A DNA stretch of 64,000 nt from a virus, in the IMG/VR virus record IMGVR_UViG_3300009514_000017, positions 1 to 64,000 of that record. One strand, given 5' to 3'. Shown piece by piece: positions 2,222 through 62,700 of this stretch; the first letter of the stretch is position 1, and each line of letters starts with the position of its first letter. The notes beneath the pieces were generated by a model that was not told the DNA's origin, made no database searches, and saw only the letters and a program-made list of their open reading frames with translations. The translations under genes were made by a program, and so were the position numbers.

Positions 2222-3094
2222 TTGGATAGCAAGGAGCAAGCCTTCGATGAGATCATGGAGAAGCTGGCTGTTCTGAAGCCCGCTAATAGGCTGCCGTATA
2301 CTCCAGCTCTGCCTGTAATACCTAATGCACACAAACCTCTCGCCTCGATTCAAAAGCGAGAGGTAGCGATGTGGCAGGAAGCCAAGAAGTCGAACTGGGA
2401 TCCCCAATTCACCAAACCGCTGTTGCGCTCTATGGAACCTCTCATTCAGAAGAGGTCCAGCCTGTACAAGAACCGTGGCGTCGAAATCCCACATAAAGCC
2501 GTGGACTTCGAGCATAGACGCCTGGCTCTGGAAGCTATCAAGACCTACGACCCCAACAGAGGAACCAAGCTTGGAACCTGGGTGACTGGAAGATTGAAGA
2601 ACGCTTCCAAGTTCATCGGTCAGAACCAGAACACAGCAAGAATCGTCGACGCCATCTCCGCTAAGATTGGAGACTACCAGCGTTTCAAGTCTGAATTGTC
2701 AGATCAACTAGGTCGTGAACCAACAGCTCAAGAAATCCATGACAACTTGATGAAGATCGACCACGACTTCGAGAGGTTGAGGGGAACCTCTCTTCGTGAA
2801 ATTCATCGTCTGGATAAGGAGCAGCGCAAAGATCTGTTCAGCACTGGGTCTGAAATAAACATGTCGGGTGCAGCGAGAACTCTAGATTACAACAAGGAGT
2901 TGATGCACACGATCATGGATGAATTGACTCCAGAGGAAAAAAAGGTTCATGTCCTGACGATGGGACTGGAAGGAAATCCAAGATTGCCTCCAGGACAGAT
3001 AGCCCGCAGACTCCATATGGACAACTCTAAGGTGTCCAAGATTCGCACCTCCATCCTCAAGAAGATGGAGCCATACAGGGTGGATCTACTCTGA
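2222..3094 (+). CDS. sigma70-family RNA polymerase sigma factor (FliA/SigB-like architecture, divergent)
   Basis: Region 2 LEAIKTYDPNRGTKLGTW (cf. AVxxFDPxRGxKFSTY); region 3 LSDQLGREPTAQEI; region 4 ELTPEEKKVHVLTMGL...PGQIARRLHMDNSKVSKIR. Confidence 0.88.
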   Translation: MDSKEQAFDEIMEKLAVLKPANRLPYTPALPVIPNAHKPLASIQKREVAMWQEAKKSNWDPQFTKPLLRSMEPLIQKRSSLYKNRGVEIPHKAVDFEHRRLALEAIKTYDPNRGTKLGTWVTGRLKNASKFIGQNQNTARIVDAISAKIGDYQRFKSELSDQLGREPTAQEIHDNLMKIDHDFERLRGTSLREIHRLDKEQRKDLFSTGSEINMSGAARTLDYNKELMHTIMDELTPEEKKVHVLTMGLEGNPRLPPGQIARRLHMDNSKVSKIRTSILKKMEPYRVDLL

Positions 3095-38563: not shown

Positions 38564-38987
38564 CTCCGAGGTAACGTTCAGGATCTATTGCCTCAAGGAA
38601 TACCTCTACCCTTTGGTTGCTAGGATCCTCGAACTTGTCCTGCCCGGCCGCGAAGATCTGACTATCATCTATGCCGATGGCGGTCTTGATGCTGTCGACG
38701 ATGATCTTGACGCGGTTGTCCAGGTCGATCTTCTTATACCGGGATTTGGGACGTTTTCGTGGATCTGGATGGTTCCAGTTCTTGTTCTGTAGCGCTTTGA
38801 AGTAGAACCTGAGGTAAACCCAGTAAGCACTGTTTGGGTCTAGCTTGTTGATCTCAGGTCCATGTTCTCGAATGACCGTTGAGACAAACTGGTTCAGATA
38901 TATTCTTGCAGCCTGAGTCTTGATGGTTCCGCGAATGTACAGCTTGTTTGAGGTGGGTGGGATCTCGGGGTATACGATGTGTATCAA
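38517..38987 (-). CDS. rusA: RusA-family Holliday junction resolvase
   Basis: PPTSNKLY ... KIDLDNRVKIIVDSIK..IGIDDSQI. Confidence 0.85.
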   Translation of the reverse strand: MIHIVYPEIPPTSNKLYIRGTIKTQAARIYLNQFVSTVIREHGPEINKLDPNSAYWVYLRFYFKALQNKNWNHPDPRKRPKSRYKKIDLDNRVKIIVDSIKTAIGIDDSQIFAAGQDKFEDPSNQRVEVFLEAIDPERYLGGEDAPQPGDSNTGEG

Positions 38988-42939: not shown

Positions 42940-44978
42940 CAGTGACACTCCGCCCAATTGTATCCACTGACTGGGCTTACCGGCAGTGGAACTAGAAGTG
43001 GTTGATCAAACGGGTTCTCCATGTGTAGCTTGATTCTTTCACTTGCAGTCTCACAGACCGAGTCATCGTCTGGGATTTCAAAGATCAGTTCATCGTGGAT
43101 CTGCAATAGCAGCCTGCAACCAACCTCGTTCAAGGTTGAATCCCAGAAGCACTTGAGCATGGCCATCATCGCTATGTCGGCAGCAGACCCCTGGATTCGT
43201 GCGTTTACTCCTTGTCGTTCTGCGAGAGCACGTTCCCTCTTTCTCATGGTTCGTACATCACCGAATCTTCGGAACCTACCCATTACAGTCTGAACGTACC
43301 CGACCTTGTTGATCATCTTCTTGTCGTACTCAATGAACTCAAACACTCCTGGGAAGACGTTGAACCACTGGTCGATTAGATCGAACCCGTCTCTCTCCGA
43401 GTAGACCACTGCACCCTTGCTTTCCTTCGTGAGGTTTGCTGCCAGCAGCCTGCCACCGATGCCGTAGATGATGCCAAAGCCAACAGCCTTCGCACCTTGT
43501 CGTCTCTGAAGTAGGTCACGTTCAGTGCTTGTCAGTTCTCTATTCAGTTTGCCAGACTTGATAGCATCGTCTGCTGTCTTGGCTGCAACCACCTCTTCAT
43601 AGCTGACTCTCCCGTTGCTCATCTCAGCGACGGTCAGACAGTGGATATCAACTCCATCGATGATCGCTTGAATCATCTTTCGGTCTTTGGAGAAGTGCGC
43701 CATCAGCCGCATCTCGAGCTGCGCGTAGTCAGCCACCAGCAATCTCATAGCTATACTGGCTATGAACGCTTTCCTGATCTTGAACTCGTCTCCACCTGGA
43801 CGAGGGATGTTCTGAAGGTTTGGTTTCGAGCTGGACAATCGACCCGTGACAGTGCCGTGCTGATTTAGGGTGGTGTGCATCCTCCCATCGTCGGCTACGA
43901 TATCTCTCATCCCCTTTACATAGGTGCTGTGGATCTTGCTCAACTTCCTATGACGCATGAGGATGTTGGACAGCGGGTCTCCCATGCCTGCCCACGTCTC
44001 CAACGTGTCCTTGTCCAGAGATGGCTTCTTGATGCCAGAAGCCCCTCCGCTCGTGTACTCGATTGGTGTGTACCCGAGCTTGTCGAAGAACAGAGTTCGT
44101 AGCTGGTCTGTGGAGTTCAGATTTATGATTTGACCGGCAGCCTTGCCAAACTCCTTCTCTATCGACTCAATCTCTTTGAGCATTCCTGGAGCGATGGCAT
44201 CCAGGTGTGCAAGATCGATATTGAATCCAGTCCGCTCCATACTGAATAGGACCTTAGTGAATGGAACGCATACGGTGTAGAAGAACCGTTTGGCAGTCAT
44301 GCCAGAGTACAGCTCTATCTCTTCCAGTACTTCGTCGTACTTAATGCGAAGGGTGGTGTGGTTGTACGCATCTATAGATGCGTAGTCTGTTGCGGGAACT
44401 ACCTTCTCCGGGTCTGCCAGTGCCGTGTAGATGAGCTCCCCTTCTGTCTTTTTCTCCTCACCCTTCTTCTTGATGTTCTTCCCAAAGATCTCGGCAAAGG
44501 TAGGTGGCATCCACCCGAACCACGCGAAGATGTTCTCCTTCAACCCGTGTCTGCCCTGCTTGTTCTCGTCGTGTAACCACGACATGACACTGGTGTCTCG
44601 CAACTCTCCTGCCTTGGTTATATCGATTCCACGATTGGCGAGCATGTGGGCGTCGAACTTGGCATTGGATATATCGAAGTTGGTTTGTGGGCTTTCGAGA
44701 AGAGGCCGAAAGATTGGTAGGAGCTCTGCTGTTAGACAGATCCTGGTGTTCACATCCGATAGCGACCAGATGATTGGATAGGACCTCATATTGTTTATGC
44801 CGGTCGTTTCCGTGTCTAGTCCCAGCCCGTTGTTAACGAACCTCGATTGCATGTAGTAGTCGAGCCACTGCTCTGCGTCCTGTTGGAGGCAGACGAAATG
44901 GGATGGCGGAAGCTGAATATTGAATGCTTGCATGGGGTAGAAAGGTGGTCCCCGCTTTTGGCGGGGACCACCTCTCAT
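42939..44978 (-). CDS. polA: family A DNA polymerase with 3'-5' exonuclease
   Basis: Exo I LDTETTG, Exo II NAKFD, Exo III YASID; motif A ADYAQLEMR, motif B KAVGFGIIYG, motif C QIHDE. Start is either 44978 or 44933. Confidence 0.95.
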   Translation of the reverse strand: MRGGPRQKRGPPFYPMQAFNIQLPPSHFVCLQQDAEQWLDYYMQSRFVNNGLGLDTETTGINNMRSYPIIWSLSDVNTRICLTAELLPIFRPLLESPQTNFDISNAKFDAHMLANRGIDITKAGELRDTSVMSWLHDENKQGRHGLKENIFAWFGWMPPTFAEIFGKNIKKKGEEKKTEGELIYTALADPEKVVPATDYASIDAYNHTTLRIKYDEVLEEIELYSGMTAKRFFYTVCVPFTKVLFSMERTGFNIDLAHLDAIAPGMLKEIESIEKEFGKAAGQIINLNSTDQLRTLFFDKLGYTPIEYTSGGASGIKKPSLDKDTLETWAGMGDPLSNILMRHRKLSKIHSTYVKGMRDIVADDGRMHTTLNQHGTVTGRLSSSKPNLQNIPRPGGDEFKIRKAFIASIAMRLLVADYAQLEMRLMAHFSKDRKMIQAIIDGVDIHCLTVAEMSNGRVSYEEVVAAKTADDAIKSGKLNRELTSTERDLLQRRQGAKAVGFGIIYGIGGRLLAANLTKESKGAVVYSERDGFDLIDQWFNVFPGVFEFIEYDKKMINKVGYVQTVMGRFRRFGDVRTMRKRERALAERQGVNARIQGSAADIAMMAMLKCFWDSTLNEVGCRLLLQIHDELIFEIPDDDSVCETASERIKLHMENPFDQPLLVPLPVSPVSGYNWAECH
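44943..44973 (-). terminator. GC-rich hairpin between the SSB candidate and polA (terminator or attenuator)
   Basis: 13-bp stem aggtggtccccgc/gcggggaccacct, followed on the - strand by ttcta. Confidence 0.6.
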
Positions 44979-44984
44979 TACCTC

Positions 44985-46340
44985 CTAGTATGGAACGTCC
45001 TCTTCTTCTCCCTCATCGTTGTTACTGAACTGAGGAGGGGGAGAGAACTGAGGGGGAGAGGGGAAGGGAGCCGGCTGTGGTGCGTACCCATTGGTAGGGG
45101 ATGGTCTCTGTGGCTGCTGCGCGTACATCTGCTGCGGAGCCATCTGCTGCCCTTGTGGGAATCCCATAGGCGGTTGACCATAGCCTGGAACCGGGGCTCC
45201 ATACTGTGGTGCCATGTGGGAGAGATTGAGTTCCATCCGATCTGCGTGTGCCTTTGGGTCTAGCGGCTTGTGGATTTCGCGGAAGTCGAACGGCTCTGCC
45301 GTCAACTCCTCCAATCTCTGCTGAAGAGTCTGTTCGTGTAGCAGGGCCGGGTTGACCCTCTTCGAGAACTCCTCTACGGACTCGAACTTGCTGAGGACCA
45401 TGTGACTGTTGGTTCCCTCACCCTGACGCAGACCGTGCAGGACTACGTCAAACATCGACTGAGAGGTTCCGGTCTGATTGCAGGATGAACAGACCGAGTA
45501 CTCCTTCAGTGCAACCATTGTCCGACAGGTTGGGCATGGATGCCTCTGAACGACGATCTTTGCCAGTTCATCATCCGATCCCGGATACGTCGCTGCATCG
45601 ATGATCGCGGTGTTGCAGGTGGGGCAATAGAAGCAGACTGCCTTAACTTCACCACCACACTGACAACGAGTTGATACGAGCTGGTCCCACGCTTCTAGGT
45701 CTGCAAGGTGACCACTCCCGATCTCGAAGTAGCGCTTCTTCCCCAGCACGTCCACCACGCTGTCTCCGTAGTTCGGCCAGTATTCTCCCTGCTGTAGGTT
45801 GGCCGGTGGGTGACCAGCCCTGACTCGGCAGAAGTTGCAGGCTCTGCCAACACACTCGTCATCCACCATGACGAATTCATTGGTCTCCTTCTTCTGCACC
45901 CACTGATTGTCCTTGGTTCCCCACAGAGGGTGCCGGTGATAGATCCCGAGGTGAGCCACAGTGAAGTAGAACTTGTCCTTCAGGTTGATGGTCTTGTCAC
46001 CCTGGTCCATGTGCATGCAGGACAGGCAGGGCTGTGGATTGTATGGGTCGGTTCCTGCGGAGCACGGAACATCTCTGAACTTGACCTGACTGATCTTGCG
46101 AGTGTGGGTCGGTATCCGACAGAACGGTAGCCTCACGTCCTTTGGCTGCCCGGTGGCTGGGTCTAGCTCCACCAGGTCCGGAGACGGGTTCGTCTCCACG
46201 TAATCACCATTCACGATGATGATCGGAGTAGGGCTCGAGGGTAGACGCAGGCGGTCCCTCCAACTCCCATACTTCTTCTTCCTGCCACCAGCGGCATTGA
46301 TGGCACGAGCGCCTCTCCGGAAGTTACTTGTTAGGGACAT
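44985..46340 (-). CDS. putative single-stranded DNA-binding protein with multiple Zn-finger motifs
   Basis: Lies between primase and polymerase; acidic C-terminal tail EGEEEDVPY resembles SSB DDIPF tails; many CxxC pairs; P/Q linker. Confidence 0.55.
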   Translation of the reverse strand: MSLTSNFRRGARAINAAGGRKKKYGSWRDRLRLPSSPTPIIIVNGDYVETNPSPDLVELDPATGQPKDVRLPFCRIPTHTRKISQVKFRDVPCSAGTDPYNPQPCLSCMHMDQGDKTINLKDKFYFTVAHLGIYHRHPLWGTKDNQWVQKKETNEFVMVDDECVGRACNFCRVRAGHPPANLQQGEYWPNYGDSVVDVLGKKRYFEIGSGHLADLEAWDQLVSTRCQCGGEVKAVCFYCPTCNTAIIDAATYPGSDDELAKIVVQRHPCPTCRTMVALKEYSVCSSCNQTGTSQSMFDVVLHGLRQGEGTNSHMVLSKFESVEEFSKRVNPALLHEQTLQQRLEELTAEPFDFREIHKPLDPKAHADRMELNLSHMAPQYGAPVPGYGQPPMGFPQGQQMAPQQMYAQQPQRPSPTNGYAPQPAPFPSPPQFSPPPQFSNNDEGEEEDVPY

Positions 46341-52970: not shown

Positions 52971-53534
52971 CTACTTCTTGGGGATGACAACTGCTGGAAA
53001 CAGGGTCGCCTGCCTGAATGCTAGCAGGGCTTGTTCACAGATGGCTTCTCCAACTCTCAGGGCGATGTTCTTAGAAACCCTAGCCATGAACGTCTCACCC
53101 TGAAACTGCGGCCGGAAGGGTGGAGGAACAGAATAGATGGCATGAAACATCGGATCTTGTACCGACCCGTAAATCCCGATGCCTCCACCGTATGGAGGCT
53201 GGACTCCGGGCATCGCACCGAAGTTCTGAGTTGGAACCGGCTGTAGGCGGTTCGGAATCTGGACCGGGACCATCTGGCCATACTGCTGCTGTGGCGCTAC
53301 AGGAGGCGCTCTGTATGGTGCAGGTGGAGCGTACAGAGGTAGCCTCCGTTGCTGAGGAGGCTGTGGAGCTATGGGAGATGGTGCGGGTCGAAATGCCTGT
53401 GATTGGTACATGGATTCCTGTACCTTCGCGCGGCATTCCGAGTTTACGTCACAACTCTCACACACTCGGGAATCATTCTCGTATGATCCCCAACACTGTG
53501 GTCTTTCAGCGGTTTGGTACTTCCAGTTCGGCAT
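52971..53534 (-). CDS. Cys4 plus Pro/Gln-rich protein, first gene of the replication block
   Basis: ATG at 53534 after AAAGGAG; CWG..CESC...C followed by P/Q/Y-rich low complexity. Confidence 0.7.
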   Translation of the reverse strand: MPNWKYQTAERPQCWGSYENDSRVCESCDVNSECRAKVQESMYQSQAFRPAPSPIAPQPPQQRRLPLYAPPAPYRAPPVAPQQQYGQMVPVQIPNRLQPVPTQNFGAMPGVQPPYGGGIGIYGSVQDPMFHAIYSVPPPFRPQFQGETFMARVSKNIALRVGEAICEQALLAFRQATLFPAVVIPKK

Positions 53535-53564
53535 GACTCTCCTTTCGGTTGCTAATCTGCCCAC

Positions 53565-53575
53565 TCCTTATACCC
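53565..53575 (-). promoter_or_regulatory. candidate phage-specific promoter element GGGTATAAGGA
   Basis: About 30 nt upstream of the first - strand gene; a similar GGGCATAAGAG sits at the other divergence point (59622-59632). Confidence 0.4.
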
Positions 53576-56503: not shown

Positions 56504-58509
56504 TGTCGTCAGATCTAGACTTCTACAACTCCCTGTCTGGCGTATCCAGATTCTCTGGTGTTCGTGGTCGGCTCTCGCAAGGTGGGTCGTTTCCAGCTCG
56601 CTATCCATCCCCATTCTTCGATCTCGGTCATACTTGGCTACCACACTCGATTGGCAAGCTGCATCAGTGGTGCCGCTACTATTACCTAGTCAATCCACTG
56701 ATCAATGCCGTCATTCACAAGATGGCGGAATATCCAATCACTGAGATTGTCGTCAACGAGGTAAACAAGACCACCAAGGAAAAGTGGGAGCACATTCTAG
56801 GACAGCATCTTCGTATTCGTGCGTTCCAGGTAGAAGCTGGCCTCGACTACTTCACTTACGGGATCTGCATTATCACGATGCACTTCCCATTCGAGAAGTA
56901 TCTCGCTTGCACGAACTGCAAGTTCGAGGACAAGGCCAGCAACCTCAAGTACAAGTGGCGCAACCTGAACTACATCCTTCGTTGTCCCAAGTGTGACCAC
57001 GAGGGGCCAACCAAGGTTCGAGACCAGTACCTGAAGGACTTCCGTCGAATCAGGTTGATGAGATGGAATCCAGAGTACGTCTACATAGAGCAGGGGTTTG
57101 CTGGCGCGGAGCCCATCTACACTTTTATGGTTCCGAAGGGTCTCAAAAACGAGATCATGATGGGCAAGACCCGCGTTCTCAACACGGTTCCAGATATCTA
57201 CATTGAAGCGTTGAAGCGCAACAGGAATATAGCGTTCGCTCCAGAGAACATGTTCGTGATGAAGCGGCCAATCATCTCTCAGAGAGAGACGGGTTGGGGT
57301 ATGCCTCTCATCCTTCCTGTTCTGAAGGACGCTTTCTACCTTCAGATCTTGCGCAAGTCTCAGGAAGCTATAGCTTCTGAGCATATCGTTCCACTTCGTG
57401 TTCTGTTCCCTCAGGCAGGAAGCGGAACGAGCGATCCATATACCTCAATCCCAATTGAGTCTTGGAGGTCCCGTATAGAGCGTGAGATCACCAAGTGGAA
57501 GTACGACCCAAACTACATTCCTGTTCTTCCTCTACCTATTGGGTCTCAGTCCATTGGTGGAGATCAGAAAGCTTTGAATCTGCACCAGGAGATCAGCCTC
57601 TGGTCTGAGCAGATCGTTGCAGGAATGGGAGTGCCGAGAGAGTTCGTGTTCGGCGGCCTTACATTCTCTGGCTCCAACGTGTCGATGAGGATGTTGGAGA
57701 ACGCTTTCATCAACTACCGTATCGACCAAGACAACCTCTTGAATGAGTTCATCATCAGGAGAGTTGCAGACTACATGGGTTGGCCATCGGTGCGCGTATC
57801 TATGCGCAAGTTCAAGATGGCAGACGATCTACAGAGGATGAGCTTCCAGTTCCAGCTCAACCAGGCAATGAAGATCTCAGACGAGTCTCTGTTGAAGGAA
57901 TGCGACCACGATCCAGTAGTTGAGAAGGAGCGCAAGGAGCGTGAGGTTGGAGCTCAACTCGAGTACCAGCGCAAGATGCAGCTATCACAGGCTGAGACTC
58001 AGGGTCAGATGTTGCTTGTTCAGTCTCGCTATCAGGCTGCTGCCCAAAGCATGTTGGCTCCGGCTATGCCTGTGCAGCCTGGAGCTCAACAGGGTGCAGC
58101 ACAGCTCGGTGGCCAGCAGGGTGAGATGGTTTCAGGAGACCAACTTGGAATTCCTGGAGTTCCTGGTGACGTTTCTGTCTCTCCAGAGAATGCTCAACAG
58201 CAGCCAGTTGAAGGAGTTCCGACTGAAGCTCAGAGTCCTCTCAGCATGAACACACAGGGTGCTGGGATAGACATTAGGTACGTTGCTAAGAGGGTACTGG
58301 CTCAAATCCAGAAGCTGTATGCCCAAGATCCACAGCAGGCGAACATGAAGCTTGAGGAGATCAGGGCATCCAATCCACAGCTATATAGTCTTCTCATCCA
58401 GATGGCTAACAGTAGGGTTGGCTCTCAAACCGATCCACTAAATCCGGTTCAGTCTCCGCAGCCACAGGTGAAGCCACCTCGTAGCCCCAAGTCTCCAGCG
58501 GCTGCGTGA
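56503..58509 (+). CDS. portal protein with Zn-ribbon insertion and Q/P-rich C-terminus
   Basis: YYLVNPLINAVIHKMAEYP; GWGMPLI; IVAGMGVPREFVFGG...SNV; size and architecture fit large-phage portals. Confidence 0.75.
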   Translation: MSSDLDFYNSLSGVSRFSGVRGRLSQGGSFPARYPSPFFDLGHTWLPHSIGKLHQWCRYYYLVNPLINAVIHKMAEYPITEIVVNEVNKTTKEKWEHILGQHLRIRAFQVEAGLDYFTYGICIITMHFPFEKYLACTNCKFEDKASNLKYKWRNLNYILRCPKCDHEGPTKVRDQYLKDFRRIRLMRWNPEYVYIEQGFAGAEPIYTFMVPKGLKNEIMMGKTRVLNTVPDIYIEALKRNRNIAFAPENMFVMKRPIISQRETGWGMPLILPVLKDAFYLQILRKSQEAIASEHIVPLRVLFPQAGSGTSDPYTSIPIESWRSRIEREITKWKYDPNYIPVLPLPIGSQSIGGDQKALNLHQEISLWSEQIVAGMGVPREFVFGGLTFSGSNVSMRMLENAFINYRIDQDNLLNEFIIRRVADYMGWPSVRVSMRKFKMADDLQRMSFQFQLNQAMKISDESLLKECDHDPVVEKERKEREVGAQLEYQRKMQLSQAETQGQMLLVQSRYQAAAQSMLAPAMPVQPGAQQGAAQLGGQQGEMVSGDQLGIPGVPGDVSVSPENAQQQPVEGVPTEAQSPLSMNTQGAGIDIRYVAKRVLAQIQKLYAQDPQQANMKLEEIRASNPQLYSLLIQMANSRVGSQTDPLNPVQSPQPQVKPPRSPKSPAAA

Positions 58510-58511
58510 GG

Positions 58512-58742
58512 TCATCTGCCATCTTCAGGAAACCAATCCTGAAATTGGTTTACTATTTCCCAAGTCTCTCTCAAAGTCTCACTAGCTCGGGAGAATGCTT
58601 GTTGTACTTCTTCCGGCGCCTTCTGAAACGACATCTTCATCCACAGATCGTATTGAGTCATCCATAGCGCTCGGATGTCTTCGCAATGGCTTTCTATGTC
58701 GTCGCGATAAACTGGTTCTAGATACGGGTTTATACGCGCCAT
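58512..58742 (-). CDS. hypothetical protein
   Basis: TGATG coupling; convergent with portal. Confidence 0.55.
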   Translation of the reverse strand: MARINPYLEPVYRDDIESHCEDIRALWMTQYDLWMKMSFQKAPEEVQQAFSRASETLRETWEIVNQFQDWFPEDGR

Positions 58743-59191
58743 CAGCCATCATCTCCCAACAGTTTCTCTGAGCAGTCGTAGCACACGGAGTCAATCTCAC
58801 ATCCACATGCCTGACACACTCCGTTGGTCATCTCTTCTAGCTCAGTCATGAATCCATCGTCGACGTTACTGATGATAAACTCACACACGCATTCCGGATG
58901 TAGGTTGACTCTACCCTCGGTTTCATTTGCGTAGTCGACGATAAGATCCCCAGTCTTCTTGTTTCTGAATACTGCACCATGAAACAACTCGACTGCTTCC
59001 TCACCTAATTCAATCTCATTGCTACACCACTGACACTTCATCATCGCCGCTTGTGGAGGTGGTGTAGGTTGGATCTGCTGCTGGTATGATTGTTGGTAAC
59101 TCGGCTGATACGACTGCTGTGGCGGCTGCGGCTGTTGGCTTCCGTACTGTAGGAAGTTAGGGTCGAAGGTAGGCCATTGAGATTTGCTCAT
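58742..59191 (-). CDS. Q/P/Y-rich N-terminus plus Cys-rich Zn-binding protein
   Basis: ATG at 59191 (ATGA overlap); QQSYQPSYQQSYQQQ; CQWC...HPEC; CQAC..CYDC. Confidence 0.65.
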   Translation of the reverse strand: MSKSQWPTFDPNFLQYGSQQPQPPQQSYQPSYQQSYQQQIQPTPPPQAAMMKCQWCSNEIELGEEAVELFHGAVFRNKKTGDLIVDYANETEGRVNLHPECVCEFIISNVDDGFMTELEEMTNGVCQACGCEIDSVCYDCSEKLLGDDG

Positions 59192-59478
59192 CGGATCACC
59201 AATTGTAGAAAGGCACTTTGGCTGCCACACCTAGTGCAGCCATCAAGTCCTGGCGAGTCTGGGTCTGAGTCATCACCGCTGTTAAACATCCCTGGTAGTT
59301 CTCGCAACTCACCTGCTGTTTCTTTCAAGCACCTCAAGCATTCCCATCCAACATGACTCACGTTTTTCAATTCCTCCTGTAGATACATGCATTTGGCACA
59401 GTCAAACGCTGTACACAATCCCCTATCCTCGTTGTCAAGCATTAGCTGGCAGAACGCTATTCGATTGGCATATGGCAT
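59188..59478 (-). CDS. small Cys-rich protein
   Basis: C..CTAFDCAKC; CLRC; CTRC. Confidence 0.6.
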   Translation of the reverse strand: MPYANRIAFCQLMLDNEDRGLCTAFDCAKCMYLQEELKNVSHVGWECLRCLKETAGELRELPGMFNSGDDSDPDSPGLDGCTRCGSQSAFLQLVIR

Positions 59479-59491
59479 TTGGTTTGCCTGT

Positions 59492-59527
59492 CAATTAAAG
59501 GAAGGACGGGATCTACCCGTCCTTCCT
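59492..59527 (-). terminator. intrinsic terminator closing the mini-ORF transcript
   Basis: 12-bp stem aggaaggacggg/cccgtccttcct, followed on the - strand by ttaatt. Confidence 0.6.
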
Positions 59528-59537
59528 GCGGGACTCC

Positions 59538-59585
59538 CTAGAGACCGAGGGAGTCCCACAGCTCGTCGATGGCGTCATCGAACAT
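59538..59585 (-). CDS. 15-aa acidic mini-protein MFDDAIDELWDSLGL
   Basis: Perfect SD (AAAGGAGG) 5 nt upstream of the ATG; flanked by a candidate promoter and terminator; below the ORF-track cutoff. Confidence 0.55.
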   Translation of the reverse strand: MFDDAIDELWDSLGL

Positions 59586-59621
59586 TGACGCCTCCTTTCG
59601 GGGACGTTATGTCCCTCTACT

Positions 59622-59632
59622 CTCTTATGCCC
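59622..59632 (-). promoter_or_regulatory. candidate phage-specific promoter element GGGCATAAGAG
   Basis: Matches the 53565-53575 element; lies upstream of the mini-ORF unit. Confidence 0.4.
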
Positions 59633-59648
59633 TAAAATCGCTGTCTTT

Positions 59649-59681
59649 TCGTTGACCTAATCAGCACCTGACCTGTACTCT
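59649..59681 (+). promoter_or_regulatory. sigma70-like promoter TCG-TTGACC-N18-TACTCT upstream of the RNAP gene
   Basis: -35 at 59652-59657, -10 at 59676-59681. Confidence 0.6.
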
Positions 59682-59756
59682 CAGCATCGTCCAGGCTCGA
59701 AAACCCAAGGCGCTGGGTAGAGCCTCTCTTCACCGAGCGCGTCTTAGGTGAGGTAC

Positions 59757-62700
59757 ATGGCACGCATATCCCCGACTGAGGTCTTTGATGGCCTCAAGAA
59801 AAACACAGTCGAGTCCATCAAGTCCTACTTCCCGTTTGAAGAGGGAGGTAAGAGGCTTGAGGTCGAAGACGTTTGGGTCGATGACAAACTGGACGTCAAC
59901 GATATTCAATCACAACAGAAGGCCAAGCTCGATGACAAGACCTGGGGTGTAAAGGTCAAAGCCAAGATGAAGCTCACCGATATCAAGACCGGCAAGGTCT
60001 TGGATCGAGCTACGTCCAGTGTGGCCACTCTGCCGAAGATGACGAATCGCTTCGGCTACATCGTTGGTGGAAACGAGTATCAGGTAGACAATCTCTTCAG
60101 ATTGAAGAGCGGTGTCTACACCCGAATCCAGAACAACGGCGAGTTGGAGTCTGAATTCAACTTGGCCAAGAGCCCTGTGGGTGGTCGCGGGTTCTCGGTC
60201 CACTTCGATCCAGAACGCAAGAAATTCTCGCTTCTCTACAAGACAGCCAAGATTCCACTCCTCCCAATCCTCAAGAGCATGGGGATGGCAGACGATGACA
60301 TCAAGAAGAACTGGGGCAAGGAGATCTACGAGGCGAACTCCCCCAAGTCTCAGAAGGCTTATGACCAAGCACTGTTGGATTTCCAGACCAAGACCAGTGG
60401 AGATGCCACGTTCAAAGGGTCGAAAGATCCTAAGGAGTACATCAAGGAGTTCTTTCATCAGTCTGAGTTGCGACCAGACACGACCTCCATCACTCTAGGA
60501 AAGCCATTCGATAGAGTGAGCCACGAGGTTCTATCGATTGCAGCCAACAAGGTTCTCGGTGTGTCTCGAGGAACCAACGAGCCTGACGACCGTGACAGTC
60601 TGGCGTTCAAGGAAATCACCTCCACCGAGGACTTCATTCCAGAGAAGATCGAGAGGTCTGCTAGGGCTATCCGGGGCAAGCTTCGTCAGACTATGGGGAG
60701 GAAAGACAAGATCAAGGAGATTATCCCTTCCGGTGAAAGAGGTCTGTTTGGTCAGCCAGTACATGACTTCTTTACCAAGGGCGGGTCTGTTGCTGAGTTG
60801 TCTGACCAGACCAACCCATTGCAGATCTTGTCTGCACATCGCAAGACTACCTTGATGTCAGAGCAGTTCGGCGGCATGAAGTCCGAACACTCTCTCACCC
60901 CAGAGATGAAGGTGGTCAACCCTAGCCACATAGGGTTCCTTGACGTGATGAAGACTCCCGAAAGCAGTCGCTCGGGTATCACCGTCAATCTATCGCTACA
61001 GGCACAGAAGAGAGGTAAGGAGCTCGAGGCTCCTGTCTTTGATCTGAAGTCAAAGAAGTTGAAGTACGTCTCAGCCCACGAGTTTCATGGACGCAATTCT
61101 GTATTGCCAGACCAAGTCAAATGGGTTGATGGCAAGCCGGTGCCTATAGCCAGCCGTGTCAAGATGAAGGTCGTTGGCGGGGCGATAGAAGAGCGTCCGT
61201 GGACCGACGCAGATTCTGTAATGCCAACTGCCAAGGGCATGTTTGACTTCACCTCGAACATGATTCCTTTCTTGCCGTCAGACCAGGGCAACCGTGTGTC
61301 GATGGCAGATAAGCAGATGGAGCAGGCTATTAGCCTGAAGCATCGAGAAGCTCCACTCGTTCAGACCAAGACCGAGAAGGAAAAGACGTTCGACAAGGTG
61401 TTGGGAAACTTTGCCTCTCAGAGATCACCCGTTGCCGGGAAAGTAACCGCAGTTAGAGGTAATCAGGTTACGGTCAAGGACGCGAAGAACAAGAGTCATA
61501 ATGTCCACTTGTACGATCACTTCCCTACCAATGACCCAAAGGGAATGTTCCATTCCGAATCGTCTGTGAAGGTCGGAGACCATGTCTCAAAAGGCGATAC
61601 TCTGGCGGATACCAACTTCACAAAGGGTGGAAACCTAGCACTTGGAACCAACCTCCGAGTTGGTTACGTGCCATTCAAGGGCTACAACTTCGAAGACGGT
61701 GTCGTCGTATCTGAGACGGCATCTAAGAAGTTGACCTCCGAACATCTGTACAAAGAGTCACTATCTGTGTCCCCAAACGATGGGGATCGTATTGACAAGA
61801 ATAGATTTGTTGCGGTGGCCAAGCGCAAGATCGCTCAGATGCAGCCAGGAGAGCTGGACGCCATTGGTAGTGATGGTGTGGTCCGCGTTGGTTCACATGT
61901 TCAACCAGGTCAGGTGTTGGTTACTGCGGTTGGTAAAAGCAACCTGGACAAGAGAGATCATGCTCTAGGTTCATTCGGTCGTAGAGCCATGTCATTGGAG
62001 AAGGACAAGTCTCTGGTTTGGAACCACTCCAGTCCTGGAAAGGTGGTTCGTGTAGTCAAGAGCCCTAATGGTAAAGAGATAAAGGTTCACGTCAAGACTG
62101 AGGAACCTTTGGTCGTCGGCGATAAGGTGGCCGGACGCCACGGTAACAAGGGCATCGTCACTAAGATTCTTCCCGATGACGAGATGCCATTTACTGTTGA
62201 TTCTAAGACCAAGGAGAAGAGGCCCATACACGTCCTTCTCAACCCGACCGGCGTGCCTTGCTACGACGATAAGACTGAATTCTTGACCGACACTGGATGG
62301 GTTCAAGCTCCCAAGATCCATGAAGAGCATCGGTTCGCTACGATCAACCCGAAAACTCTAACTCTTGAATTCCAAGATCCAGAGGAGGTTTACCACATAC
62401 CTTACACGGGTAAGATGTACAGGATTCAGAACCAGCAGCTTGACCTACTAGTTACTCCTCACCACAAGCAGTTCACTGCCAAGAGAGGGAACCAGAAGCT
62501 GTATGGAGCGTTGGATTTAGATGACCAGGAGCTTCCGTCTCTGTTTTCATTGGATGAAGCACAGGAAATCATAGGCCAACCAAGGCGGTATCTAAAGGCT
62601 GCTAAGTGGAAAGGTGATAGCGCGGCTTTCTACTATATAGAGCCTGGAACTTACGCTGGAGTAGGGCCTAAGCCTACTCATGGAATGAACATCCCAGCAT

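Follow-up and report, generated by a model that had tools for sequence, protein, structure and literature searches.

What is encoded in the 278-bp gap that separates a minus-strand set of three genes (58512-59478) from the plus-strand RNA polymerase (RNAP) gene in a 75.8-kb phage genome? The window analyzed here comprises the first 64,000 nucleotides (1-64000) of one phage contig of 75,790 bp, and the gap in question contains a 15-codon micro-ORF set among a promoter-like element, a Shine-Dalgarno (SD) sequence and a series of hairpins (Table 1). A preliminary description, made from the DNA letters alone, had listed these elements and read them as a self-contained mini transcription unit encoding an acidic peptide. 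All of the listed sequence elements were found on the minus strand at the positions given for them, and the promoter-like element, the SD sequence and the start codon are all real. The answer that we favor, with moderate confidence, is that a conserved operon, oriented away from the RNAP gene, has its 5' end in this locus, and that a minimal version of an acidic first gene is translated there ahead of attenuating hairpins specific to this genome.

Table 1. Features of the RNAP-divergent locus and of related elements; coordinates are window positions unless marked as genome positions.
Feature	Position	Strand	Remarks
RNAP beta-beta' gene, single chain, 2,962 aa	59757..64000 in window, to 68636 of genome	+	
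RNAP-gene promoter-like site TTGACC, 18 nt, TACTCT	59652..59681	+	Back-to-back with GGGCATAAG
Promoter-like element GGGCATAAG, -10-type; lineage consensus GGnATAAG[A/G]	59624..59632	-	Conservation in relatives
5'-proximal stem-loop (hairpin 1), GGGAC-ATAAC-GTCCC	59601..59615	-	
Shine-Dalgarno AAAGGAGG in context CCGAAAGGAGG	59591..59598	-	
Hairpin A, GGCGTCA/TGACGCC, 7 bp, ATG in loop	59571..59592	-	
Micro-ORF, 15 aa + TAG, encodes MFDDAIDELWDSLGL	59538..59585	-	ATG 59585, TAG 59540-59538
Hairpin B	59528..59559	-	10 perfect pairs at 59557-59530; 12 with G-U at 59559-59528
Hairpin C	59492..59527	-	12 perfect pairs (59527-59499), loop TAGAT, then TTAATTG
Downstream gene 1, 96 aa, Cys-rich family	59188..59478	-	
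Downstream gene 2, about 149 aa from ATG 59191, Cys-rich	58742..59191	-	
Downstream gene 3, 76 aa, one Cys	58512..58742	-	
F-x-[D/N]-E-L-x-K-I tags	1151, 1387, 54821, 55985; genome 73091, 74524, 75030	+	

The operon divergent from the RNA polymerase gene

The phage and its relatives correspond to tailed phages with an RNAP gene that are known from metagenomes, a little-studied group with a bacterial-type RNA polymerase (PMC7481178), and no description of the RNAP-adjacent cassette was found in the literature searched. Twenty viral contigs and a few metagenome contigs share 37-61% identity over the RNAP N-terminus, and an alignment-based scan returned 213 relatives, 80 of which were fetched for comparison of the locus. 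None of the collections searched contained a relative with more than about 60% RNAP identity (the metagenome scan reached a maximum of 61%). Direct searches with the locus itself gave little: blastn of 58500-60500 found no match among cultured phages, neither a degenerate DNA pattern for the peptide nor a pattern for hairpin C had a match in viral_contigs, and a word-indexed protein search with the 96-aa neighbor protein returned that protein alone. The nearest cultured phages, Salmonella phage Arash and Vibrio phages D69, D148 and D181, stand at about 30% identity (30% for the Arash RNAP beta); in all four the portal and RNAP genes lie on one strand and the divergent cassette is absent.

The minus-strand promoter-like element is strongly conserved. 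In an alignment running from the RNAP start to the first minus-strand ORF of 15 near relatives (alignment A1), ATAAG and its flanking G's are invariant or nearly so; [N]ATAAG occurs at the expected place in 21 of 21 unique near relatives (the set also used for the leader-hairpin checks), and G[G/T]nATAAG[A/G] is found in most of about 70 wider loci. The element is not over-represented in the window, with 7 matches at up to one mismatch against 8.6 expected. Its significance comes from conservation in relatives. The genome's only other minus-strand operon is likewise headed by AGGGYATAAG (53567-53574), and the SD context CCGAAAGGAG is common to the first genes of both minus-strand operons (at 53546 in the other) and to the acidic ORF of two relatives (L007 and L010). 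At that second site, window 53534-53575 on the minus strand, the element GGGTATAAG stands 24 nt before CCGAAAGGAGAGTC-ATG and heads a long minus-strand operon, within which a third copy, GGTATAAG, lies at 38733-38740.

Compared with a sigma-70 promoter, the minus-strand site has no -35 box, and its -10 ends in G whereas that of sigma-70 ends in T. A conserved GTCAACGAAA on the minus strand was considered as a -35 box and rejected, because its distance to YATAAG is 21 nt here but 42 nt at 53.5 kb and because it is also the reverse complement of the first hexamer (the TTGAC box) of the plus-strand site. On these two grounds, we read the gap as holding two putative promoter-like sites placed back to back, the minus-strand site and the RNAP gene's own. 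A sigma-70 consensus scan left the plus-strand TTGACC-N18-TACTCT site unflagged. Between this site and the RNAP start lies a conserved inverted repeat, GGCTC...GAGCC with nested CCCA..TGGG (59690-59725, plus strand), and the blocks GGCTCTACC and TTCGAGCC of the RNAP 5' leader are kept in the near relatives of alignment A1. The leader sequence suggests that the RNAP mRNA may be structured at its 5' end.

Gene order on the other side of the gap is conserved as well. In relatives, the first ORF behind the promoter encodes an acidic protein of 26-63 aa, and is followed by an ORF for a hydrophobic transmembrane (TM) peptide of about 30-40 aa and then by a Cys-rich gene that overlaps the end of the membrane-peptide ORF; this order recurs down to 38% RNAP identity. 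In the window, gene 1 is followed by gene 2 with an ATGA overlap of stop and start, and gene 3 ends head-on against a portal-like gene. The three proteins contain 8, about 9-10 and 1 Cys, so that the earlier label of three Cys-rich genes fits the first two and fails for the third. No promoter-like element of their own was found for these genes, which would therefore depend on read-through from the conserved site. The ATG of gene 1 (59478) lies 20 nt past hairpin C and has no SD sequence. A separate promoter between hairpin C and that ATG was rejected, as there is room for 20 nt only and the TTGACA found there has no usable -10. Thus, the locus is the 5' end of a conserved, divergent operon beside the RNAP gene and does not stand alone: where the preliminary description saw a self-contained unit, the downstream genes lack a promoter-like element and the relatives have one continuous operon from the same promoter.

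The 96-aa product of gene 1 belongs to a Cys-rich family with 33 homologues and 8 invariant Cys (alignment A4). The C-terminus of this family (CTRCG...FLQLVLRR) is conserved, and the window protein is shorter than its 33 homologues, the NGGxF..GxPI segment being missing. Searches of Pfam and PHROGs returned no match for any of the three downstream genes, and a structural model of the Cys-rich protein (pLDDT 75.7) had no Foldseek match in PDB.

Virion proteomics of phage Arash found RNAP beta, beta' and sigma to be abundant in purified particles (PMC10585845). It is fair to infer from this that phages of the lineage studied here deliver their own holoenzyme by injection and express GGnATAAG units early; the RNAP-divergent operon, which belongs to this class, is probably an early one. 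A putative sigma-70-family protein is encoded at window 2222-3094 on the plus strand; Pfam yields only matches below threshold for it, which cover regions 2 and 3 (E about 3e-3).

The micro-ORF as a member of the acidic first-gene family

We aligned 43 unique members of the acidic family found behind the promoter in relatives, and built core HMMs and a PSSM from which the window was left out. The family core spans about 10 residues, [M/D/E]-F-[E/D]-D-x-[I/V/L]-[D/E]-[D/E]-x-[L/I], with [M/D/E]-F-E-D-[D/E]-[I/V/L]-[D/E]-[D/E]-x-[L/I] shared across the 43-member alignment. Searched against all 3,529 six-frame segments of the genome, the 10-column core HMM ranked the micro-ORF segment first (E 0.96; runner-up 8.4), as did a 15-column HMM (E 1.5; runner-up 7.6). 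By ungapped PSSM, MFDDAIDELW ranked third of 105,331 with a score of 13.3, in the lower part of the family range (11.2-24.7). An HMM E-value of 0.96 is on its own not significant genome-wide, and the case is made by position and score together: the expected slot comprises about five segments, and the joint chance of the top HMM rank falling there is roughly 1e-3. A narrower profile from the 16 nearest relatives (motif MWEDEKxDALLG) placed the peptide at PSSM rank 187 of 92,191, and the HMM of this nearest clade placed it at rank 26 of 3,529 (E 62); MAFFT offers another alignment of the peptide as well. The closest look-alikes are MFEDDIDSLFDGS in locus L102 and DFEEAIDGEIDG in L050, the core of the L102 acidic ORF (MFEDDIDSLFDG) having its motif in common with the window micro-ORF (MFDDAIDELWDS). 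The family itself has no Pfam or PHROG entry: ten members gave nothing credible in PHROGs, and a protein atlas held no match.

The acidic ORFs of relatives (for example L102, L050, L101 and L010) occupy the same slot, first behind GGnATAAG and divergent from the RNAP gene. Their core is preceded by some 5-45 aa of N-terminal extension and usually followed by a tail that is acidic or rich in Pro/Glu, both of which the window copy lacks, and they directly precede a membrane-peptide ORF and have no tandem hairpins, in which the window also differs. The micro-ORF starts on the first residue of the core and ends five residues past it, whereas the 17 near relatives checked have an SD-supported start 5-16 codons ahead of the core, and extensions reach about 45 residues in the wider alignment. 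The start codon follows ATAAG at a distance of 38 nt, compared with about 40-60 nt in most relatives, a spacing that fits an in-frame loss of the extension. The gene for the membrane peptide is absent from the whole genome: the best match of a TM-peptide HMM (E 2.9) lies at an unrelated place.

Judged from these sequence comparisons, the micro-ORF is a minimal local homologue of the lineage's small acidic first-gene protein, and it has kept the core, the frame, the SD sequence and the promoter distance and has lost the N-terminal extension and the acidic tail. In relatives, the motif codons are under purifying selection; between L001 and L002, synonymous differences affect 6.5 of 6.7 sites and non-synonymous differences 2.5 of 29.3. 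The comparison with related phages proposed in the preliminary description, which here extended to about 80 loci, showed conservation of the acidic core in one slot, with no counterpart of hairpins B and C in near relatives. Its reading of the product as an early micro-protein is reasonable in view of the core match and the conserved slot.

Could the ORF have arisen by chance in an intergenic region? SD-like pentamers with a following ATG are common in this genome, and 17 of them precede ORFs shorter than 30 aa. Yet the segment is the top match of the family-core profile, its position behind the promoter is conserved, and its SD, with 5 nt between GGAGG and ATG, lies in an 8-nt context common to the first gene of the other operon. 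We consider a chance origin highly improbable.

Decay is harder to dismiss. A rearrangement could have removed most of the acidic gene along with the membrane-peptide gene and left the 15 codons and their SD as a recent, non-functional stump, in which case only the promoter and the hairpins (as terminator or insulator) would matter. The acidic ORF is missing in three lineages (L008, L009 and L041) and so is dispensable, the Cys-rich protein of the window is shortened too, which suggests a lineage that is losing sequence, and the PSSM score is in the low part of the family range noted above. Residues 9-15 are also encoded within hairpin B, and their identity may be imposed by the RNA. On the other hand, core, frame, optimal SD and promoter distance are all intact, more like trimming around a core than like decay, and the codon choice fits a hairpin (A) that spans the SD spacer and codons 3-5. 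Because the core, the frame and the start signals were kept despite the losses, a trimmed gene that is still translated is favored over a dead stump, which we regard as unlikely.

In the three lineages without the acidic ORF, the promoter and SD are immediately followed by the membrane-peptide ORF, and the L009 leader carries an 8-codon ORF, MFKLWRLP. Stop-codon read-through or frameshifting of the window micro-ORF was also considered and rejected: the read-through frame ends after 26 codons and never joins the Cys-rich frame, and inspection by eye found no slippery site.

Hairpins of the leader and the question of attenuation

The RNA of the locus is predicted to be exceptionally stable. The 131 nt from 59620 to 59490 have a folding energy of -70.1 kcal/mol; dinucleotide shuffles average -43.2 +/- 4.1 (z -6.6), and none of 200 was as stable. 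The 5' part alone gives a z of -2.7. The stem of hairpin A covers the last two G of the SD sequence and codons 3-5, and the native codons fold better there than 495 of 500 synonymous recodings. The fold as a whole is more stable with the native codons than with any of the 500 recodings. In near relatives, a hairpin of unrelated sequence starts 5-9 nt after ATAAG. Their first-hairpin regions tend to be structured, 67% of near-relative loci having a 34-nt MFE of -8 kcal/mol or below compared with 32% of random 34-mers (Mann-Whitney p 8e-4, indicative only since the loci are related). Enrichment of the 5' stem-loop is weak in the wide set, where stems of at least 7 bp occur in 11 of 63 loci vs 7.8% expected.

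Within a 40-nt window, hairpin B folds at -28.6 kcal/mol. Residues 9-15 of the peptide are encoded by its 5' arm and loop, and the stop codon is split between loop (T) and 3' arm (AG). Hairpin C, at -23.7 kcal/mol, has a GC-rich stem and ends in TTAATTG after a 12-bp stem or in TTTAATTG after an 11-bp stem. Thus, the 12-bp terminator of the preliminary description stands as far as its 12-pair, GC-rich stem is concerned, but the T-run is weak and a consensus terminator scan left the hairpin unflagged; we call it terminator-like or attenuator-like. The leaders of the 21 near relatives contain nothing that corresponds to B or C; some more distant loci do carry strong leader hairpins. The two hairpins, like the loss of the membrane-peptide gene, are specific to this genome. 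A mobile or repeated element was rejected as their source, because neither the genome nor any of the loci has another copy. A second strong hairpin just behind a start signal occurs at window 44930-44990 (minus strand), within the other minus-strand operon. It has 13 perfect pairs (GGTGGTCCCCGC..GCGGGGACCACC, then TTTCT), starts 6 nt past an SD-ATG and precedes a 679-aa ORF, so that polymerase must routinely read through hairpins of this kind in this phage.

One might suppose that the structured RNA of about 125 nt is itself the product that matters, a phage small RNA, possibly of dual function, to which the ORF is secondary. Its stability (the z of -6.6), its bracketing by a promoter-like element and a terminator-like hairpin, and a codon choice tuned to structure would all suit such a role. 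However, it belongs to no Rfam family (the best match in Rfam 15 was to an unrelated one, at 18 bits vs a gathering score of 40), near relatives lack hairpins B and C, and it is the peptide core, not the RNA, that the lineage as a whole conserves. We therefore hold this reading to be quite improbable.

RNA structure does overlap the coding sequence elsewhere in the family. In 8 of 43 relatives the hairpin within the core-coding sequence goes beyond what the codons require (z < -2; mean z -0.59), several being perfect palindromes. In L049, L050, L055, L069, L091, L099 and L101, core codons form perfect palindromes or hairpins of 8-9 bp that are more stable than synonymous recodings (z from -2.3 to -3.1 in most); one such core is GACCTGATCGATGATCAGGTC, which encodes DLIDDQV. 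This suggests that these codons are constrained both by the peptide and by RNA or DNA structure.

Another reading is a leader peptide acting in cis, such that translation through hairpin B sets termination at hairpin C or decay of the mRNA, and hence expression of the Cys-rich genes; the preliminary description had offered a leader or attenuator as one of its options. The arrangement suits such a device, in that a short ORF ends inside hairpin B and is immediately followed by a terminator-like hairpin and by genes that have no promoter of their own, and the 8 relatives with core-coding hairpins at z < -2 are consistent with it. Like trp-type leader attenuators, the locus combines a short ORF and a terminator-like hairpin ahead of promoterless genes. 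Attenuators of that type, though, have alternative pairings and regulatory codons, and neither was found at the micro-ORF. Inspection by eye revealed alternatives of 4-6 bp only and no mutually exclusive antiterminator pairing, and the 15 codons contain no run of repeated rare or regulatory codons. When the 27 nt around the stop were held unpaired to mimic a ribosome footprint, hairpin C still formed with 10 pairs. Furthermore, near relatives conserve the peptide without any terminator. A trp-type mechanism is thus not supported, and we judge a cis-acting leader peptide in general to be improbable.

A different precedent is the lambda PR'-tR' region (6S RNA), a promoter-proximal terminator unit that is released by antitermination. 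The order of promoter, short structured RNA, terminator and operon is the same here. The locus differs in that no antiterminator gene or site was identified, in that the short RNA has a putative translated ORF, and in that relatives lack the terminator.

Properties and possible role of the peptide

The peptide was described as an acidic amphipathic helix, and this is borne out by its helical muH of 0.43, compared with 0.21 +/- 0.10 for shuffled sequences, only 2.6% of which score as high. The likeness to an FxDEL tag that had also been pointed out is present and weak. Peptides of the form F-x-[D/N]-E-L-x-K-I occur near the N-termini of five plus-strand ORFs of the same genome and near the C-termini of two (Table 1). 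The tags of the F-x-D-E-L-x-K-I type share F-x-D-[D/E]-hydrophobic with the micro-ORF peptide, with more hydrophobic residues 3-4 positions on, and all tags fall within the top 3.2% of the family-core PSSM. They differ in that the third hydrophobic position is offset and in being parts of larger proteins on the other strand, in the virion region; the core HMM ranks the tag-bearing segments from 8th to about 1,100th of 3,529. It is conceivable, if very doubtful, that the peptide is a free-standing early copy of an N-terminal acidic amphipathic tag on virion-region proteins including the sigma factor, and that it binds in place of the tag to the tag's receptor, serving as decoy, timer or adaptor when the phage transcription machine is loaded or assembled, longer family members then being the tag plus an acidic tail.

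As to the targets suggested earlier for the peptide, no evidence was obtained in support of RNAP, sigma or DNA mimicry. T7 Ocr (gp0.3), a 117-aa dimeric DNA mimic, is acidic and is encoded by the gene that comes first after an early promoter. The micro-ORF product is likewise an acidic first-gene product, but it has no sequence relation to Ocr and we claim no membership for it. It cannot be an Ocr-type DNA mimic, because 15 residues are too few to imitate bent B-DNA.

Our preferred reading, a minimal acidic first gene at the head of the RNAP-divergent operon, would work as follows. Transcription would start a few bases after GGnATAAG, at about 59616-59618. This promoter class heads both minus-strand units, which are non-structural, and its reader is probably the phage's own RNAP-sigma, probably delivered with the virion. 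The 5' stem-loop probably stabilizes the transcript, and the strong SD sequence would then direct translation of the 15-aa acidic amphipathic peptide. The two perfect GC-rich hairpins, which take the place of the tail and the membrane-peptide gene, most likely act as a promoter-proximal attenuating terminator. Such attenuation would yield an abundant RNA of about 125 nt, with part of transcription continuing into the Cys-rich genes. Our best guess is that the product is an immediate-early amphipathic acidic peptide made before an attenuating terminator.

No major concept is changed by these results. They define a cassette beside the polymerase gene, with a GGnATAAG promoter class, a small acidic protein, a membrane peptide and zinc-type Cys-rich proteins, and they provide a case of a conserved peptide motif and RNA hairpins on the same bases. 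For this cassette, the window provides a natural minimal form of the acidic protein, which suggests that selection retains a part of about 10 residues; as a short synthetic peptide, this minimal core would be suited to tests for binding partners.
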